Positions 1 to 6,437 of a stretch of 6,437 nucleotides of DNA are shown piece by piece (within the stretch, counting starts at the first letter, position 1; each line of letters begins with the position of its first letter). The notes under the pieces were generated by a model. The model saw nothing but the letters and a program-made list of their open reading frames with translations. It made no database searches and had not been told where the DNA came from. Made by a program: the position numbers and the translations under genes. The stretch is from a virus (lineage: Duplodnaviria > Heunggongvirae > Uroviricota > Caudoviricetes): the IMG/VR virus record IMGVR_UViG_2617270947_000009. The stretch is one strand, 5' to 3'.

Positions 1-341
1 CCCGTCGACCGTCCGGCACGGTCCATCACAGTGATAAAGGTTCTCAGTATGTATCGCTGGCCTACACACAGCGGCTTAAGGAAGCCGGATTACTGGCATC
101 AACAGGAAGTACAGGCGACTCGTATGACAACGCGATGGCGGAGAGCATCAATGGTCTTTACAAAGCGGAGGTAATACACCGTAAGAGCTGGAAAAACCGT
201 GCAGAAGTGGAACTGGCCACACTCACGTGGGTGGACTGGTATAACAATCGACGATTGCTGGAAAGGCTGGGCCATACTCCTCCGGCAGAAGCAGAAAAAG
301 CTTATTATGCTTCCATCAGAAACGATGATCTGGCAGCCTGA
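1..341 (+). CDS. IS3-family transposase OrfB (DDE integrase domain), C-terminal portion; 5'-partial at window edge
   Basis: Open frame 3-341, TGA stop at 339-341; conserved HSDKGSQY and YDNAMAESINGLYKAE motifs; the ATG at 135 in the ORF track is internal, not the true start. Confidence 0.85.
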   Translation, partial: RRPSGTVHHSDKGSQYVSLAYTQRLKEAGLLASTGSTGDSYDNAMAESINGLYKAEVIHRKSWKNRAEVELATLTWVDWYNNRRLLERLGHTPPAEAEKAYYASIRNDDLAA

Positions 342-383
342 GTTCACAGATAAAACACTCTCCAGGAAAACCGGGGCGGTTCA
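1..383 (+). mobile_element. Partial IS3-family insertion sequence (3' part of transposase gene plus terminal inverted repeat); the copy continues beyond the window start
   Basis: Frame-3 translation from nt 3 gives RRPSGTVHHSDKGSQYVSLAYTQRLKEAGLLASTGSTGDSYDNAMAESINGLYKAEVIH..., a DDE integrase-core signature (HSDxGSQY, DNAxAES..K..E) typical of IS3-family OrfB. After the TGA at 339-341 comes an approx. 42-bp terminal sequence ending ...CCGGGGCGGTTCA at 383 (outside-in: TGAACCGCCCCGG, the TGA...-type terminus of IS3-family elements). The same sequence occurs reverse-complemented at 6009-6437. Confidence 0.85.
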
Positions 384-386
384 CTG

Positions 387-2204
387 GTGGATAAATCCGG
401 CGCAGTCACAGCAGCACAGACTATTACCTCACATGGTGAAAAAAGACTCCTGACAGGTTCGGCAAAGCGGGGGGCATATCACGCCATAAACGCACAGAAA
501 CGACCTCACAGCATCATAATTGCTGAGGGGGTGGCTACCGCCCTGTCGTGCCATTTAATTCGCCCTGACGCAATGACAGTGGCAGCAATCGACGCTGGCA
601 ACCTGTTGCCAGTAGCGGAAGTCATGCGCAGAACATATCCACAGGCACAAATCATCATTGCCGCAGATAACGATCACCAGCAAGGAAACTCCGAAAGTGG
701 AGGGATCAACACGGGGAAAGATGCCGCAGAGAGGGCCGCTATTTCCGTAGCTGGCTGGGTGTCTCTGCCACCGACTGACTATAAAGCCGACTGGAACGAC
801 TATCACCAACAACACGGGCTGGCGGCAGCCACAGCAGCATTTAAAGATTCGATGTACCAGCCACGGGGGAAAGGGGCGCAGGTGAAAAATCACAAACAGT
901 CAGTCGGGGCGCTGAATGAGATCAGTTCTGGCGAGGTGTTAAGCGATGATGAAATTGCTGTCCTCGAAGAAATCAACCGGACGTTTACGCATGTCACCAT
1001 CGGCGGGAAACACAAGGGGGGGTCGCTAAAGCCTTCTCAAAACGGCGGGGTATCGCACCTTTTTGAGGGTTTATCACAATTTCAGCATTATTTTCATCAT
1101 AAACCGAGAGTCGCCAGAAAGCTGGCGGGATCGGCGTGGCTGTCATGGAGTGGGAAGAACTACAAGCCAGGAGGCGTAGGATTTTATCCAGTACCAGACA
1201 AATGCCCTGACGATGTTTTTAATCTGTATGAGGGGCTGGCACTGGAACCAATTGAAGGAGATTGCACGGTATACCTTAATCACCTGTTGCAGGTTGTCTG
1301 TGCCGGTAATGAAGAGGCATACCAATATCTTATCCAGTGGATGGCGCACATTATCCAAAAGCCTGATGAAAAACCGTCCGTGGCAATCGTGATGAAATCT
1401 GTCCCGGGCACAGGGAAAGGCACAACGGTTAAACCGCTGCTGCAAATACTGGGGCAGTACGCCGCCCACATTAACGGGGCGGGACATATTTCAGGGCGCT
1501 TCAATTCAATACTTGCTAACAAACTACTGGTATTTGCTGACGAAGTGACGATCCACAAGCCGTCTGAAGCTGACAGACTTAAAGCGATTATTAGTGAACC
1601 GACGTTTAACCTTGAGCGCAAGGGAATTGATGCTGAACCAATGCCGAATTTTGCCCGGTTGATATTTGCCAGTAACAGCACACAGGTATTACAGGCAGGG
1701 ATAAGAGAGCGTCGCTATCTCGTGCTTGAGCCATCTCCTGAAAAAGCACAGAGCCGGGAGTATTTTGATCGGCTGTACAGTTGGCTTAATGATGGCGGTG
1801 CCGCAAAGTTGCTTTGGCATCTTAAAGGGGTGGATCTCTCAGGTTTTGACCCTCAACGAGCGCCACAGACCGATGCCTTACGTGAAGAAATCTTGCTGGG
1901 GCTGTCTGGCGTTGAATTGTTTCTTTATGGCGAGCTAATCAATGAACCTCCGTTTAATGGCGAAGTCCGTTTGTTTGCAAAGGATATGGTTAGTCGGTTT
2001 GTAGCGTGGTCGCTTGAGCGTGGGGAAAAGCTTAAAGAACCAGCTGCCAGATCACTACTGGGTAAATCACTTGCACAAATGGGGCTGGTGAAGCATGGAA
2101 GACCAGACCGAGGGAATGGCGTGTTCTACGAACTACCAGAGGTCGGAGTTCTACAGGCTGCGTTTGCCCGTCTGATCGGTATGGGGGGTTATGATGTTTT
2201 TTAA
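387..2204 (+). CDS. P4 alpha-type primase/helicase, N-terminally truncated at the IS junction (likely pseudogene or remnant)
   Basis: Toprim motif AEGVATA (E codon at 525-527) and IIIAADNDHQ DxD motif (D codons 666-668 and 672-674); Walker A VPGTGKGT (approx. 1404-1424) and Walker B LLVFADE (approx. 1525-1545). The open frame begins immediately at the IS end (384), with GTG at 387 as first possible start. In P4 alpha the EGYATA motif lies about 170 residues further from the N-terminus, so about 170 aa including the zinc-binding region appear missing. Stop TAA at 2202-2204. Confidence 0.8.
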   Translation: MDKSGAVTAAQTITSHGEKRLLTGSAKRGAYHAINAQKRPHSIIIAEGVATALSCHLIRPDAMTVAAIDAGNLLPVAEVMRRTYPQAQIIIAADNDHQQGNSESGGINTGKDAAERAAISVAGWVSLPPTDYKADWNDYHQQHGLAAATAAFKDSMYQPRGKGAQVKNHKQSVGALNEISSGEVLSDDEIAVLEEINRTFTHVTIGGKHKGGSLKPSQNGGVSHLFEGLSQFQHYFHHKPRVARKLAGSAWLSWSGKNYKPGGVGFYPVPDKCPDDVFNLYEGLALEPIEGDCTVYLNHLLQVVCAGNEEAYQYLIQWMAHIIQKPDEKPSVAIVMKSVPGTGKGTTVKPLLQILGQYAAHINGAGHISGRFNSILANKLLVFADEVTIHKPSEADRLKAIISEPTFNLERKGIDAEPMPNFARLIFASNSTQVLQAGIRERRYLVLEPSPEKAQSREYFDRLYSWLNDGGAAKLLWHLKGVDLSGFDPQRAPQTDALREEILLGLSGVELFLYGELINEPPFNGEVRLFAKDMVSRFVAWSLERGEKLKEPAARSLLGKSLAQMGLVKHGRPDRGNGVFYELPEVGVLQAAFARLIGMGGYDVF

Positions 2205-2233
2205 TATAGTCTTTTTACAAGAAGATCGTTTTT

Positions 2234-2337
2234 ACCTGTACCACCTATACCACTTTGATAATTCAGCATTAAAAACAATGCGTTATAGTGGTACAGGTCA
2301 ATATCTTACCTATACCAGACCTGTACCACCTATACCA
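2234..2337. repeat. Iteron cluster downstream of primase (candidate origin): 19-bp direct repeat ACCTGTACCACCTATACCA at 2234-2252 and 2319-2337, inverted core copy GTGGTACAGGT at 2288-2298, partial copy CCTATACCAG at 2308-2317, flanking an AT-rich stretch (2254-2287)
   Basis: Repeats read directly from the sequence; the arrangement of iterons next to an AT-rich segment just 3' of a primase/helicase gene resembles P4 ori and SaPI/PICI origins. Confidence 0.6.
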
Positions 2338-2380
2338 TTAACAAACGCATTTCTTCTGGCTGGCTGAAAGGGAACAACCA

Positions 2381-2611
2381 ATGATGAGCACACCATTTTA
2401 CAAAGTGCGCCAGTTAGCTTCTTCCTCTGGCTGGCAGCTACGGTTTGAGGGGCGTTCAGACTGGCTACCCATTGCGGCATGGGCGAATGTTGAAATGTGT
2501 ATTGACGGCGATACCGTTGAAATCATTATTCCCTGCGTGGCAAGTCGGGACGGCTGTATAGAGCCAACAGATATGGCAGCAGAAATCAGAGAGGTAAAAC
2601 ATGAACAATAA
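2381..2611 (+). CDS. Hypothetical protein, 76 aa
   Basis: ATG at 2381 preceded by AAAGGG (2368-2373) at appropriate spacing; overlaps the next gene by 11 nt (translational coupling); no family recognised by eye. Confidence 0.55.
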   Translation: MMSTPFYKVRQLASSSGWQLRFEGRSDWLPIAAWANVEMCIDGDTVEIIIPCVASRDGCIEPTDMAAEIREVKHEQ

Positions 2612-3338
2612 CTATTGCATACCGCAGGGAATGACCAGAACGGAGCGCGAAGAATTAAAAAGTTTCGCTACACAGTGCGGGAATGCTGGCGACATCCAAA
2701 GTCTGGAACGCACTTTAATTATGATTACGCACTGGATGCGTCAGGGGCAAAGGGTTTCATTTACTGAATATGCCAGCCAGTGGACAGAGGCACAGCGCGA
2801 ACGGAGCGACGGTAATCACTCAACACCCGAAATGGCGAAGCAATGGCCTTTCAGTGGTAAACGCTGTATCAGTCCCGGTGGTTCAGATTATTACCCTGCT
2901 GGTGTGGGAGATGAGCCATGTTGTGACGAGACTGAAATCCGCCACGCAGTGACAGTAATTACCGCTGAATACCCACAATTTAACCTTGACGGACTGGCGC
3001 TCCACAACCGGAATGCGGACTGGGAAAACCCGCTTGATAACCCGTCATTTATCGTATCGGCGAAAAGCTGCCTGAGATGGATCAGAGACAACGGGATGAG
3101 TAATGCCCAGATTGAGAGCTTCCCGCAGGATAACCCCACATCTGACACGTTGAAGCATGAAGTGGAGCGATATAACCAGATAAACCACCAGCACAGTGAT
3201 CACCCGCACTATATCCCCAACGGAGCATTTATTGCGGCGATGGTGGCAAGCGGCTACAAGGTTAAGCCAGCGGGAAGAATGAACGCATTTTTCAATATTT
3301 CAAAAAAGGGATTATGTGCTGCTATGGGTAAAAATTAA
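2601..3338 (+). CDS. Hypothetical protein, 245 aa
   Basis: ATG at 2601 preceded by GAGAGG (2588-2593); open frame to TAA at 3336-3338; ORF of this length in the same orientation as neighbours; no recognisable catalytic motif. Confidence 0.6.
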   Translation: MNNNYCIPQGMTRTEREELKSFATQCGNAGDIQSLERTLIMITHWMRQGQRVSFTEYASQWTEAQRERSDGNHSTPEMAKQWPFSGKRCISPGGSDYYPAGVGDEPCCDETEIRHAVTVITAEYPQFNLDGLALHNRNADWENPLDNPSFIVSAKSCLRWIRDNGMSNAQIESFPQDNPTSDTLKHEVERYNQINHQHSDHPHYIPNGAFIAAMVASGYKVKPAGRMNAFFNISKKGLCAAMGKN

Positions 3339-3343
3339 ATAAA

Positions 3344-3447
3344 TGGTACAGGTCTGTACAGGTGGGGAGAGGTCATTTTTACCCACCTGTACCACCTGCA
3401 GGCCGCGTCACAAAAGGGTTTGTGACATGGTGGTACAGGTGGTACAG
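3344..3447. repeat. Second iteron cluster with the same core (CCTGTACCACC / GGTGGTACAGG): GGTACAGGT 3345-3353, TGTACAGGTGG 3355-3365, CACCTGTACCACCTG 3384-3398, GGTGGTACAGGTGGTACAG 3429-3447; the last two form an inverted repeat around the palindrome at 3407-3426
   Basis: Read directly from the sequence; same core motif as the 2234-2337 cluster, present in both orientations. Confidence 0.6.
3407..3426. promoter_or_regulatory. Perfect palindrome GTCACAAA-AGGG-TTTGTGAC (8-bp arms, 4-nt spacer) nested between inverted iterons; candidate protein-binding site
   Basis: Exact reverse-complement arms at 3407-3414 and 3419-3426; not followed by a T-run, so unlikely to be a terminator. Confidence 0.4.
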
Positions 3448-3611
3448 CAAAAACAGCGATTTTCTTTATAAGGTTTTATAAGGTATGTTTTGCTCATCTG
3501 GCAGACGGAGGTATTCGCTGCGGTTTGGCACATAGCCCAGAACAGCAAAGAGTTTTACGAGACTTTTGTAAAATCCAGTGTACAAGGGCGTGACGTTTTT
3601 GAAGGAGGGAC

Positions 3612-3628
3612 CTACGAAATTTTCGTAG
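3612..3628. promoter_or_regulatory. 17-bp perfect palindrome CTACGAAA-T-TTTCGTAG; candidate operator
   Basis: Arms 3612-3619 and 3621-3628 are exact reverse complements; AT-rich centre; preceded by a GAAGGAGGG stretch (3601-3609) with no start codon following. Confidence 0.35.
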
Positions 3629-3822
3629 TTCAAAAAATAGCCTCTGAGATGTTGTTATGCCTGTTCAGCAAACCATCCGCATAGCTGATCGCGAATCAAA
3701 TTACCAATGGAGCCAGAAGCAAGGGCAGAACTGGAAAGCGCCTGCCGTGAAGAGTAATGCGACATCGTAAATATAGTTTTTAGAGTCCATAAAAAAACTG
3801 TCAAAACCTGACATACAGAACG

Positions 3823-3855
3823 ATGCCACCAGCTACTGAACGGTGGCATTTTTTT
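3823..3855 (+). terminator. Rho-independent terminator (8-bp GC-rich stem ATGCCACC/GGTGGCAT, 11-nt loop, run of 7 T)
   Basis: Stem 3823-3830 pairs with 3842-3849; T-run 3849-3855; orientation fits + strand transcription only. Confidence 0.6.
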
Positions 3856-3874
3856 GTGCTATTTGTTTCATATT

Positions 3875-3917
3875 TTGCAATCACAATGATGAATGTTGCG
3901 TTTTATGAAACTATAAT
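3875..3917 (+). promoter_or_regulatory. Putative promoter for the downstream operon: consensus -10 TATAAT at 3912-3917; no good -35 at 16-18 bp spacing (TTGCAA at 3875-3880 is 31 bp upstream)
   Basis: Perfect -10 hexamer 34 nt upstream of the 3951 start codon and downstream of the terminator; the lack of a -35 suggests activator dependence or a misplaced call. Confidence 0.35.
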
Positions 3918-3950
3918 GACTGTTGTTTTATACAGTTCTAAGGGGGCGTT

Positions 3951-4124
3951 ATGGCTATTTCAGTAAAGCCAGTATTGATAAGTGAGAAGCAAATGGAAGC
4001 GATAAAGAAAATTCAGGAGGAGCAGCGTAAAAAATCAGAGGTAGGAGTTGCGCCAACGATCCACGAAATTGCTCGGGGATTAATGGATAAGGCGCTGGCT
4101 TACACTTTAACTGGACGTGGGTAA
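3951..4124 (+). CDS. Small hypothetical protein, 57 aa (MAISVKPVLISEKQMEAIKKIQEEQRKKSEVGVAPTIHEIARGLMDKALAYTLTGRG); possible small DNA-binding (ribbon-helix-helix-like) protein; absent from the supplied ORF track
   Basis: ATG at 3951 preceded by a strong Shine-Dalgarno AAGGGGG (3940-3946); stop TAA at 4122-4124, 4 nt before the ATG of the next gene; predicted strand-helix-turn-helix layout is inferred by eye only. Confidence 0.55.
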   Translation: MAISVKPVLISEKQMEAIKKIQEEQRKKSEVGVAPTIHEIARGLMDKALAYTLTGRG

Positions 4125-4128
4125 ATCA

Positions 4129-5595
4129 ATGGCTACGTGGCAACAGGGTATTAATTCTGGTGGTTTTCTGGCTGGCATCGGTACGCAAAATGAGAATGCG
4201 CCAAAGGCAAGCGACATTAACGCAACGCTTGGTCTGATCCGCGAAAACAATGAACTGGCTCGATCAGGTGCAAATAACGTTGCTCTGACAGGTCTTCGTG
4301 GTCTGGCTGGAGTTGCTGATATTTATAAGCAGCAGCAACAGCAGGAGCGTAAAGCGGCATTCCAGAAAGGTTATGCAGATGCTTATGCGTCCGGTGACAG
4401 GGAGCAGATGCGTAATCTTATTACAGCATTCCCAGAAGAGTTTGAGGAAGTCCGTAAAGGGATGAGTTATGTCGATGATGCTCAAAGGGATGATTATGGC
4501 AATCTGGCGCTCAAAGCACAGGTAGCCTCATCGCTTGGTCAGGGCGCATTTGGCAGGTTCATGATGGATAATGAGCAGGAGATGCGTCGTTTAGGTATCC
4601 CTCCAGAAACTATTGCTGAAATGCAGGTTAATGACCCGCAGGGCTTCCAGCATTTCGCAGGTAATCTGGCGCTGTTTTCTCTCGGTCATGAGAAGTATTT
4701 CGATATCAAAGATCAAATGGAAGGTCGGGATATTGAACGTGGCAAGTTGGCAGAGACAATCCGCAGCAATCAGGCCAGCGAAGCACTTCAGGCGAGAGGG
4801 CAGGATATTAGCCGAGCAAATGCGTTAACGTCAGCATATGCACCAACAGCAGCAATGCAGAATTACAATCAGTACGCTCAAATGTTAAAGGCGGATCCAG
4901 AGGGGGCGGCGGCATTTGCGGCAGCGGCTGGAATTAATACAAACGCCAAAAAATTAATGAGTGTTAGAGAAAACGATGATGGCACTGTCACAAAATACTA
5001 CACAGACGGAAGTGAAGAGCAGGGAAAACTAAACCAGCCAATATCTGGAGATGGGTTTCGTCCAATAGCTTTGCCAACAGCCCAAAAGATCATGGAAAAG
5101 TCGCCAGAAGGGGCTAAAAAAGCTGCTGGATTTGCATACAGAGTTAGGGATGCTCTTGATTCAATGGATACACTGAAAGGCCAGCTTAGCCCACAGCGAG
5201 TGGCGATCATTAATAATGCTTTGGGTAATGGGACGCTGGCTAACTTAACGCTCACCCCAACAGAGCAGCAATACGTTGTTAATGCTAATGACGCAATAAT
5301 GGCAATACTCCGTCAGGAAACAGGGGCAGCTATCGTACCTGCTGAAATGTCAAAATATTATCAAATGTATTTCCCTCAGCCTGGCGACTCCACAAAAACC
5401 ATTGATACCAAGCGCCGGAAGATGGAAAACCAGTTCAATTCGCTGAAAGCTGCTTCTGGTCGAGCTTATGATGCTTTGCGGGTTATTTCAGCAGTTGACA
5501 GAGGGACTTCTTCTTCGTCGCAGACATTGCCGCAATCTGAGCAGGTATCACAGCCAGCAGCCAGCAGTAATTTTTCTTCACTATGGGGTGATTAA
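4129..5595 (+). CDS. Hypothetical protein, about 488 aa (492 aa if the GTG at 4117 is used); Ala/Gln/Gly-rich, low complexity with a QQQQQ run, no catalytic motif recognised
   Basis: Long uninterrupted frame; ATG at 4129 closely follows the upstream stop; stop TAA at 5593-5595 overlaps the next start (TAATG); the composition is the kind seen in phage scaffold, ejection or tape-measure-like proteins, but the family is not identified. Confidence 0.65.
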   Translation: MATWQQGINSGGFLAGIGTQNENAPKASDINATLGLIRENNELARSGANNVALTGLRGLAGVADIYKQQQQQERKAAFQKGYADAYASGDREQMRNLITAFPEEFEEVRKGMSYVDDAQRDDYGNLALKAQVASSLGQGAFGRFMMDNEQEMRRLGIPPETIAEMQVNDPQGFQHFAGNLALFSLGHEKYFDIKDQMEGRDIERGKLAETIRSNQASEALQARGQDISRANALTSAYAPTAAMQNYNQYAQMLKADPEGAAAFAAAAGINTNAKKLMSVRENDDGTVTKYYTDGSEEQGKLNQPISGDGFRPIALPTAQKIMEKSPEGAKKAAGFAYRVRDALDSMDTLKGQLSPQRVAIINNALGNGTLANLTLTPTEQQYVVNANDAIMAILRQETGAAIVPAEMSKYYQMYFPQPGDSTKTIDTKRRKMENQFNSLKAASGRAYDALRVISAVDRGTSSSSQTLPQSEQVSQPAASSNFSSLWGD

Positions 5596-6011
5596 TGGCT
5601 AAAGCATGGAAAGATGTTATCGCCTCTCCACAGTATCAGGCGTTAGCACCAGAACAAAAAGCGCAGGCTCAGGAGCAATACTTCAATGAAGTCGTGGCCC
5701 CGCAAGCCGGAGAAAGTGTAGCGCAGGCTAAGCAGGCTTTTTATGCTGCCTATCCACTACCATCAACGAATGAAATAGACCGATCCCAATCAGCAACTCA
5801 AAATATTCAACATACATCATCTGATAATTCTCTTGCGTCAGGGTATGCAAAGTTAGCGACTCAGCAAAGAGAGGGGCTTGAGCGTTCAGCAGAACAGGGA
5901 GCCAGTCTTGGGGCTGCGATGCGCGATGCTATAACAGGCGAAAGCCGAATGACTCCAGAGATGGAGAGACTGCAAAATGTCGACCTTGCCCCAGAGTTAA
6001 CCTCACTCTGA
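5595..6011 (+). CDS. Hypothetical protein, 138 aa as it stands; probably C-terminally truncated, because the stop codon TGA (6009-6011) is the first three bases of the IS terminus
   Basis: ATG at 5595 overlaps the preceding stop (translational coupling); the last native codon ends at 6008 and the IS end TGAACCGCCCCGG begins at 6009. Confidence 0.55.
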   Translation: MAKAWKDVIASPQYQALAPEQKAQAQEQYFNEVVAPQAGESVAQAKQAFYAAYPLPSTNEIDRSQSATQNIQHTSSDNSLASGYAKLATQQREGLERSAEQGASLGAAMRDAITGESRMTPEMERLQNVDLAPELTSL

Positions 6012-6437
6012 ACCGCCCCGGGTTTCCTGGAGAGTGTTTTATCTGTGAACTCAGGCTGCCAGATCATCGTTTCCGATGGAAGCATAATAAGCTTTTTCTG
6101 CTTCTGCCGGAGGAGTATGGCCCAGCCTTTCCAGCAATCGTCGATTGTTATACCAGTCCACCCACGTGAGTGTGGCCAGTTCCACTTCTGCACGGTTTTT
6201 CCAGCTCTTACGGTGTATTACCTCCGCTTTGTAAAGACCATTGATGCTCTCCGCCATCGCGTTGTCATACGAGTCGCCTGTACTTCCTGTTGATGCCAGT
6301 AATCCGGCTTCCTTAAGCCGCTGTGTGTAGGCCAGCGATACATACTGAGAACCTTTATCACTGTGATGGACCGTGCCGGACGGTCGACGGGCCCATAACG
6401 CCTGCTCCAGTGCATCCAGCACGAATGTCGTTTCCAT
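6009..6437 (-). mobile_element. Partial IS3-family insertion sequence, second copy in inverted orientation (terminal repeat plus 3' part of transposase gene); continues beyond the window end
   Basis: 6009-6391 is the reverse complement of 1-383, with two mismatches found by eye (6022 and 6074); terminal sequence TGAACCGCCCCGGGTTTCCTGG at 6009-6030. Confidence 0.85.
6051..6437 (-). CDS. IS3-family transposase OrfB (DDE integrase domain), C-terminal portion; 5'-partial at window edge
   Basis: Translation ...RRPSGTVHHSDKGSQYVSLAYTQRLKEAGLLASTGSTGDSYDNAMAESINGLYKAEVIH...ASIGNDDLAA matches the copy at 1-341 except one residue (G vs R); stop (TCA on + strand) at 6051-6053. Confidence 0.85.
   Translation of the reverse strand: METTFVLDALEQALWARRPSGTVHHSDKGSQYVSLAYTQRLKEAGLLASTGSTGDSYDNAMAESINGLYKAEVIHRKSWKNRAEVELATLTWVDWYNNRRLLERLGHTPPAEAEKAYYASIGNDDLAA

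Follow-up and report, generated by a model that had tools for sequence, protein, structure and literature searches.

The 6,437-nucleotide stretch of viral DNA analyzed here (IMG/VR virus record IMGVR_UViG_2617270947_000009, Caudoviricetes; the whole stretch is called the window below) carries two overlapping genes which lie downstream of a primase-helicase gene and between two arrays of the same iteron. The first of them, ORF76 (positions 2381-2611, plus strand, ATG start), encodes a small acidic protein of 76 amino acids, and the second, ORF245 (2601-3338, plus strand, ATG start), a protein of 245 amino acids. The two genes overlap by 11 nt and plausible Shine-Dalgarno sequences are visible in front of both, AAAGGGAA upstream of 2381 and GAGAGG upstream of 2601. 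The initial annotation of this DNA had described the overlapping genes and their location between two arrays of one motif, and our results bear out this description on both counts.

The window was searched for GGTACAGGT allowing at most one mismatch, using the expected number of matches and 200 shuffled sequences as a control. This search yielded 10 matches against 0.93 expected, a number attained by none of the shuffled sequences (0/200), and all 10 fell inside 2234-2336 or 3345-3440, making both arrays significant. Array A (2234-2337) contains six copies of the core TGGTACAG(GT), two in tandem at 2236 and 2245, one inverted at 2289 and three in tandem at 2310, 2321 and 2330; the layout is that of two copies at 9 bp, an AT-rich spacer of 44 bp, one inverted copy, 21 bp and three copies at 9-11 bp, with a GC content of 0.30-0.38. 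Array B (3344-3447) has five copies in mirror orientation, displayed as two, one inverted and two, and when it is reverse-complemented, its iterons fall in register with those of array A, an alignment obtained for the window as well as for a Buttiauxella locus (L006); the mirror arrangement of A and B is also present in L006 and in Xenorhabdus loci. The distance from the end of array A to the ATG of ORF76 is 44 nt, and array B starts 6 nt after the stop codon of ORF245.

In contrast to the AT-rich spacer of array A, that of array B is GC-rich and includes a hairpin with an 8-bp stem (3407-3426, GTCACAAA-AGGG-TTTGTGAC), an asymmetry which is repeated in Buttiauxella L006. Because the difference in spacer GC is common to the window and Buttiauxella, it suggests that the two mirror arrays have different jobs, for example a melting site in one case and a control or termination site in the other. 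Just outside array B, an AT-rich stretch (3465-3484) holds a 10-bp tandem duplication consisting of two copies of TTTATAAGGT; the E. coli relative L001 has one copy, which explains a difference of 10 nt in length.

The layout of array A is nearly the same as that of the type-1 repeats in the ori of P4 (positions 9406, 9396 / 9353 / 9331, 9320, 9310), which are arranged as two copies at 10 bp, 43 bp, one inverted copy, 22 bp and three copies at 10-11 bp. Moreover, the gene upstream of it (384-2204, plus strand) encodes a 5'-truncated P4-alpha-like primase-helicase (Toprim_3 and DUF5906 in Pfam, DNA primase in PHROG), with a full length of 783 aa in intact relatives such as L001. Its N-terminal half is homologous to the primase domain of P4 alpha (33% identity over 335 aa, E 4e-41), while the helicase or C-terminal half, of the DUF5906 type, does not align with alpha; TIGR01613 gave 21 bits with this protein, against a cut-off of 108.7. 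In P4-type replicons the initiator joins a Zn-ribbon and Toprim primase to an SF3 helicase, and the origin is built of 8-9-bp iterons. Besides the array layout and the homology of the primase half, features shared with P4 are an iteron array directly 3' of the initiator gene (crr, 3' of alpha, in the case of P4), the presence of two separated arrays of one iteron, and a small accessory protein tied to the replicon, as Cnr is in P4. Cnr is said to regulate P4 copy number, a role reportedly described by Terzano in 1994 and Ziegelin in 1997.

Besides the DUF5906-type helicase half, several features set this origin apart from that of P4. The iteron is TGGTACAG here and TGTTCACC in P4; the two arrays are mirror copies, both 3' of the gene for the initiator and separated by some 1.1 kb (some 0.4 kb in Xenorhabdus), whereas the P4 arrays are 4.5 kb apart and flank a whole operon; array B lacks the crr layout of two 120-bp direct repeats; and neither ORF76 nor ORF245 has a P4 counterpart. 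In P4-type replicons the second iteron site, crr (cis replication region), is required in cis, and P4 alpha reportedly binds the iterons at both ori and crr, as Ziegelin and Lanka are said to have found in 1995, and by analogy the primase-helicase is the probable iteron-binding initiator of the replicon described here.

The element to which this origin belongs was identified through its relatives. Among 5,426 complete E. coli genomes, 140 carry the DNA of the window in their chromosome, with 98.9% identity, and in strain 2016C-3878 (L001) it is part of an island of about 16 kb bordered by yicC and dinD, which encodes an integrase, an HTH regulator, antA/B, ash, the 783-aa primase, both ORFs, P22-type ejection proteins and PerC. 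P4-like satellites reportedly have a core formed by psu, delta, sid, ash/epsilon, alpA, alpha and int (the SatelliteFinder set attributed to de Sousa et al.); unlike them, L001 has int, an HTH protein, ash and the primase, and no sid, delta or psu is found in its annotation, P22-type ejection genes being in their place. Gram-negative phage-inducible chromosomal islands (PICIs), in turn, are defined by int, alpA, pri/rep followed by an iteron origin, a rightward operon, a size of 10-20 kb, the lack of capsid and lysis genes and helper-dependent induction. The gene content and order of such islands are present in L001, in the Xenorhabdus island L002 and in L006, and PICI status is putatively assigned here from genes and from the strong DNA similarity to EcCIMP1. 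As in EcCICFT073 and EcCIMP1, intact relatives of the window have an integrase, an AlpA-like HTH protein, a primase and iterons directly 3' of the replicase. EcCIMP1, a PICI mobilized by the P22-like phage Kapi1, has the same gene plan as the 2016C-3878 island (PMC11773190). The window thus probably represents what is left of an EcCIMP1-like PICI satellite after interruption by two IS3-family copies.

Comparison with EcCIMP1 (L005) also delimits the replication cassette. On either side of it, the window shares 75-93% identity with this experimentally mobilized PICI, the primase domain (384-874) being 75% identical and the stretch at 3549-4099 (plus strand; non-coding DNA followed by a 57-aa ORF at 3951-4124) 92.6% identical, and no match to EcCIMP1 was found between 874 and 3549. 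Conserved flanks around an unmatched middle therefore define an exchangeable cassette, at about 875-3548, in which both arrays and both ORFs are found together with the part of the primase gene that encodes its helicase and C-terminal half. Its left breakpoint is located inside the primase gene, right after the conserved primase domain, and its right breakpoint about 100 bp beyond array B. In the corresponding place EcCIMP1 has a different helicase half and a single array of another iteron, with neither of the two ORFs, in contrast to the mirror-duplicated array with one or two genes enclosed that is found here. That the interval between the arrays is the interior of a mirror-duplicated, P4-like iteron origin in a PICI replication cassette is well supported. 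In the literature consulted on these replicons we found no description of a mirror-duplicated iteron array with enclosed genes, and this mirror duplicate of a P4-like array, enclosing one or two genes, is the novelty of the locus.

Both enclosed ORFs display the signature of coding sequences. When compared to diverged homologues, dN/dS is 0.05-0.28 for ORF76 and about 0.09-0.12 for ORF245, with third-position changes dominating in both cases. Structure prediction, one of the checks proposed in the initial annotation, gave a confident AF2 model for ORF245 (pLDDT 88.8, pTM 0.85), whereas the model of ORF76, all-beta, was of low confidence (pLDDT 65.5), and no significant match was obtained in a fold search with ORF245. 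Low dN/dS for the two ORFs, together with the confident model of ORF245, indicates that both are real genes under purifying selection. No match to either protein was found in Pfam, NCBIfam, PADLOC or PDB sequences, nor did ORF76 match any PHROG family; in the case of PADLOC, ORF76, ORF245 and the primase hit 0 families at E <= 1.

The two genes do not depend on each other. ORF245 homologues are present without ORF76 in L003, L007 and L008, ORF76 is present without ORF245 in L051, L057 and L058, and in Xenorhabdus an iteron array stands between the two genes. This mutual independence and the separation by an array argue against a toxin-antitoxin or obligate pair, and it is well supported that ORF76 and ORF245 are independent genes.

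ORF76 is confined to a single type of replicon. Only 12 homologues were found among 5.8 billion proteins, and a genome scan retrieved eight loci, in Pantoea, Buttiauxella and six Xenorhabdus species, all of them (8/8) directly downstream of a DUF5906-type primase. In X. innexi, X. yunnanensis, X. anantnagensis and X. bakwenae, ORF76 is the only gene enclosed by array A (orientations -,+,-,-) and array B (+,-,+,+); an ORF245 homologue follows array B in X. innexi and X. ehlersii, and is absent in X. anantnagensis, X. bakwenae and Pantoea. ORF76 is known solely from the replicon with GGTACAG iterons and a DUF5906 primase, where it is always enclosed by the two arrays. All members of the family are acidic (pI 4.4-4.7, with 4.6 for the protein in the window). 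Since an acidic protein of about 8 kDa is restricted to one type of origin, ORF76 would more likely contact the initiator than DNA.

ORF245, on the other hand, is found next to replicases of several types. Its close homologues (41-98% identity) are restricted to Enterobacterales, and at all the loci inspected it comes first or second after the replicase of an AlpA-type island. Four contexts were distinguished, namely a Toprim_3 and DUF5906 replicase with GGTACAGGT iterons, an AAA_25 replicase with AAAGTGGGG iterons, a DUF927 replicase with GGCGGATA iterons, and a Toprim_3 and DUF927 replicase with ACCGACAA iterons. Across these four unrelated iterons the homologues are 41-67% identical and the putative recognition helix, NGAFIAAMVASGY, is near-invariant, which argues against iteron-specific binding by ORF245. 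In L008 the homologue is enclosed by two ACCGACAA arrays. An SSB gene is located downstream of ORF245 homologues, frequently with an overlap of stop and start codons, as occurs in L003 and L007. Full-length ORF245 was found in satellite-like islands only, and tblastn against 50,697 phage records gave no hit. In the GGTACAG replicon of X. innexi (L053), a partly decayed ACCGACAA array (5260-5440), homologous to the right-hand array of L008, lies 3' of the ORF245 homologue; the presence of this foreign array shows that replicons of different types have recombined in or close to the ORF245 gene.

The initial annotation had pointed to several Cys and His residues in ORF245, including a CC pair, and to a hydrophobic C-terminal segment. 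The protein has indeed 7 Cys and 9 His, although the CC pair is not conserved in the family, in which C89 and C157 are the sole invariant cysteines; a zinc-binding CC motif was discarded on these grounds, no recognizable metal-binding motif being present. The hydrophobic segment NGAFIAAMVASGY corresponds to a conserved helix of 10-13 residues (H207-216) which sits within a globular domain and is too short for a membrane segment, and we therefore rejected ORF245 as a membrane protein.

To define the ORF245 family, an exhaustive profile search was run over 1.84 billion representatives, family members being counted as clusters at 50% identity. The 808 hits resolve into two families of stand-alone domains, and since residues ~4-105 and ~107-244 are each found as separate proteins, ORF245 is a fusion of an N-terminal helical domain (residues 1-106, 2601-2918, plus strand; stand-alone relatives of about 90-120 aa) and a C-terminal winged-helix-like domain (residues 107-245, 2919-3338, plus strand; relatives of about 120-140 aa). 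The two domains as adjacent separate genes were seen in 0 of 60 loci, and no Pfam domain that would be informative was seen fused to the longer family members. Pfam contains neither of the two domains, and for the N domain no match to a family of assigned function was obtained. The C domain, with the motif SYGLKHxVE...YIxNGxFIAA...NAxFNIS, matches phrog_9576 and phrog_17839 (E 7e-4 for ORF245, down to 9e-14 for relatives), two function-unassigned families which name the domain without explaining it; all of its relatives in the named database (169/169) are labelled hypothetical.

In the predicted model the N domain is helical and the C domain ends in a helix-helix-helix-beta-hairpin. The weak hits of the fold search with ORF245 are nearly all winged-helix DNA binders (RFX, Cdc6/Orc1, Cdt1, Fur/PerR, ArsR, MarR, TubR and the P4 origin-binding domain), thus the C domain is possibly a winged helix, as judged from the model. 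Profile searches of both domains against PDB sequences returned nothing credible, and a comparison of the C domain with the P4 alpha origin-binding domain showed no profile similarity. One family member, P0082 (273 aa), has two tandem C domains, reminiscent of the Rep initiators with two winged helices. In several full-length proteins the C-domain profile (positions 19-58) weakly matches the N-terminal region (residues ~4-75), a sequence similarity that hints at an old internal duplication in the ORF245 family.

The stand-alone domains were located in replication modules of very different elements. Stand-alone N domains follow P4-type primases (Zn_Ribbon_Prim, Toprim_3, D5_N, DUF5906, Pox_D5) and iterons, in one case the true P4 iteron TGTTCACC; the SSB gene that lies 3' of the N domain overlaps it by 4 nt in L044 and L045. 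Stand-alone C domains come after a primase and iterons in the S. pyogenes prophage 315.2 and in the 14-kb Lacticaseibacillus element JB1P3, and in 7 of 12 distant viral contigs the C domain adjoins PolA, a DUF5906/VapE primase or an SF2/SNF2 helicase. Taken together, the two domains are found repeatedly in first position after a primase and iterons, next to at least eight types of iteron and in both Gram-negative and Gram-positive elements. Of the link to the iterons proposed in the initial annotation, what holds is that the genes are part of a replication cassette and that their relatives occupy the first slot after primase and iterons; the specific roles suggested there for the proteins are not supported.

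We propose that ORF76 and ORF245 are accessory proteins of the replication module, encoded inside a bipartite P4-type PICI origin, a reading to which, as a whole, we give about an even chance. According to it, both arrays would be bound by the primase-helicase, in the manner of alpha at P4 ori and crr, and not by the embedded proteins. ORF76 might modulate the primase-helicase, or the firing of the origin, by protein-protein contact, with a logic like that of P4 Cnr. ORF245 would be an independent mobile accessory gene, placed in the first slot after replicase and origin with at least four replicase types, and may act in replication whatever the iteron, perhaps by linking to SSB or the host replisome as an adaptor or by binding a DNA structure. 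A more elaborate scheme, which we regard as rather unlikely, can also be drawn: the primase-helicase bound to both arrays would loop out or silence the enclosed genes, ORF76, an acidic primase modulator whose expression is tied to origin occupancy, would close a copy-control circuit, and the N and C domains of ORF245 would represent an unrecognized, widespread family of origin-proximal replication adaptors, serving primase-helicase replicons of satellites and phages of both Gram-negative and Gram-positive bacteria.

Several observations weigh against the accessory-protein reading as a whole. No sequence match to the P4 origin-binding domain was detected in the C-terminal region of the primase. 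Enclosure by the arrays is not universal, as in L003 and L007 all iterons are 5' of the ORF245 homologue and in Xenorhabdus ORF245 lies outside the arrays. Five chromosomal stand-alone homologues of the C domain are located outside replication modules, and one of them, in Shewanella algae (L061, 4593-7030), is flanked by a TriTu gene and a ThsB_TIR gene, followed by a SLATT gene, a defence-island-like neighbourhood which does not fit the association with replication seen in phages and satellites. In addition, Gram-negative PICIs have one rightward operon, in which the slot after the origin may reflect expression timing only, and Fillol-Salom et al. 2018 placed genes for interference and packaging right after pri-rep-ori.

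The accessory reading has to be weighed against four others. ORF76 and ORF245 could be passenger genes settled in a tolerant spacer between two cis-acting arrays, ori and a crr-like site, so that the sandwich would mean nothing for the proteins. The content between the arrays does vary, from ORF76 alone (Xenorhabdus) to both genes (E. coli and Buttiauxella) or ORF245 alone (L008), a whole operon fits between the P4 cis sites at their 4.5 kb distance, and recombinant mosaics exist, such as L053 with its decayed ACCGACAA array in a GGTACAG replicon. Arguing against it are the finding of ORF76 in this slot only and under strong purifying selection, and the recurrence of the N and C domains in first position after primase and iterons with at least eight iteron types in both Gram groups, and we consider the passenger explanation unlikely.

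Factors of helper-phage interference or packaging redirection would be expected in the slot reported by Fillol-Salom et al. 2018, and they would agree with the P22-like ejection genes downstream in the island and with the restriction of full-length ORF245 to satellite-like islands. Yet the C domain alone is encoded in the replication modules of bona fide phages, beside PolA, primase and helicase genes, ORF245 is coupled to SSB and not to packaging genes, and neither gene is present in EcCIMP1, although its downstream module is the same and its helper is also P22-like; this function is improbable in our view.

A toxin-antitoxin, defence or anti-defence module carried as satellite cargo, which takes in the toxin-antitoxin-like or defence accessory pair named as a candidate in the initial annotation, would be consistent with a small gene overlapping a larger one, with the frequency of defence cargo in satellites and with the C-domain homologue of Shewanella algae between TriTu and ThsB_TIR/SLATT genes, as well as with another homologue found after a DUF4747 gene. 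Contrary to what is seen in type II toxin-antitoxin systems, with their two adjacent genes that are transcribed together, always co-occur and encode a recognizable toxin or antitoxin fold, ORF76 and ORF245 do not co-occur obligatorily; they are found singly, can be separated by an array and are distributed independently, which makes a toxin-antitoxin-like pair unlikely, and a defence accessory pair is not favoured either, given that neither protein matches a PADLOC defence model and that no Pfam or NCBIfam family is hit. The location is in a replication cassette and not in the known cargo slots, and the gene is conserved across replicon types in a fixed position adjacent to the origin. We thus see little probability in a cargo module of this kind.

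Finally, we judge it very unlikely that one or both proteins are an iteron-binding initiator or copy-control regulator in the style of F repE (ori2/incC) and P1 repA (incC/incA), where a gene also lies between two clusters of one iteron, those of the origin and those for control, and encodes the iteron-binding initiator. The clusters of F and P1 are direct repeats, and those of the window mirror copies. Against this reading, the gene upstream codes for a dedicated primase-helicase initiator, ORF76 has an acidic pI of ~4.6, there is no profile similarity to the P4 origin-binding domain, and ORF245, which has one winged-helix-like domain in its model in place of the WH1-WH2 of RepA, RepE and Pi, with their specificity tracking the cognate iteron, keeps a near-identical NGAFIAAMVASGY helix alongside four unrelated iterons and replicases. 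Taken by protein, ORF245 is unlikely to be the initiator that the initial annotation had suggested, and ORF76 is kept as a candidate.

Replication control in satellites (PICI and P4-like) is poorly understood past the initiator and its iterons, and two uncharacterized domains are found here repeatedly in the first slot after primase and origin, across very different mobile elements. Should ORF76 and ORF245 prove to be accessory factors of replication, they would add new components to the copy control of satellites and to replisome recruitment, and would be useful markers for annotating the replication modules of satellites; if they are not, the locus is still a clear case of whole-cassette exchange between PICIs.

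Regarding the rest of the window, its ends are formed by IS3-family elements, annotated as IS3 family transposase in E. coli genomes. The left copy is represented by its 3' part (1-383, plus strand) and the right one is inverted (6009-6437, minus strand), positions 1-383 being 99.5% identical to the reverse complement of the right end. The left copy truncates the primase gene, with the loss of about 178 N-terminal codons, and the right copy truncates the ejection/transglycosylase gene (5595-6011), the 3' part of which is lost. The island copy in the window is incapable of its own replication and resembles a composite-transposon-like remnant.

Rfam searches of the window retrieved nothing, and a scan for promoters and terminators gave nothing above shuffled expectation. 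The stretch at 3549-3950, about 400 bp in front of the 57-aa ORF, is non-coding; it has a terminator-like hairpin at 3832-3847 followed by a T-run, and the ejection-gene module could have its promoter or a pac-type packaging signal here. Downstream, a P22 gp20-like DNA ejection protein of the satellite is encoded at 4129-5595 (plus strand; Pfam Inj_translocase, E 3.9e-83; phrog_917). Proteins of the P22 gp20-like and transglycosylase types are encoded together in PICIs in the window (4129-6011), in L001 (13970-17541) and in L005 (6481-10517); as virion-delivered proteins of the helper type they are an unusual cargo for a satellite. The EcCIMP1 paper labels these genes merely as "DNA transfer" (PMC11773190).

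In the Xenorhabdus island L002 a DUF5375 protein (6239-6784) is encoded two genes upstream of the primase, and ORF106 of P4 (L059, 6984-7304), which we take to be cnr, belongs to the same Pfam family. The corresponding gene 5' of the E. coli primase (L001, 9089-9691) gave an E of only 0.009 with P4 ORF106/Cnr, a match that was not used. The overlap of these PICIs with the replication-control set of P4 may be larger than their classification implies.

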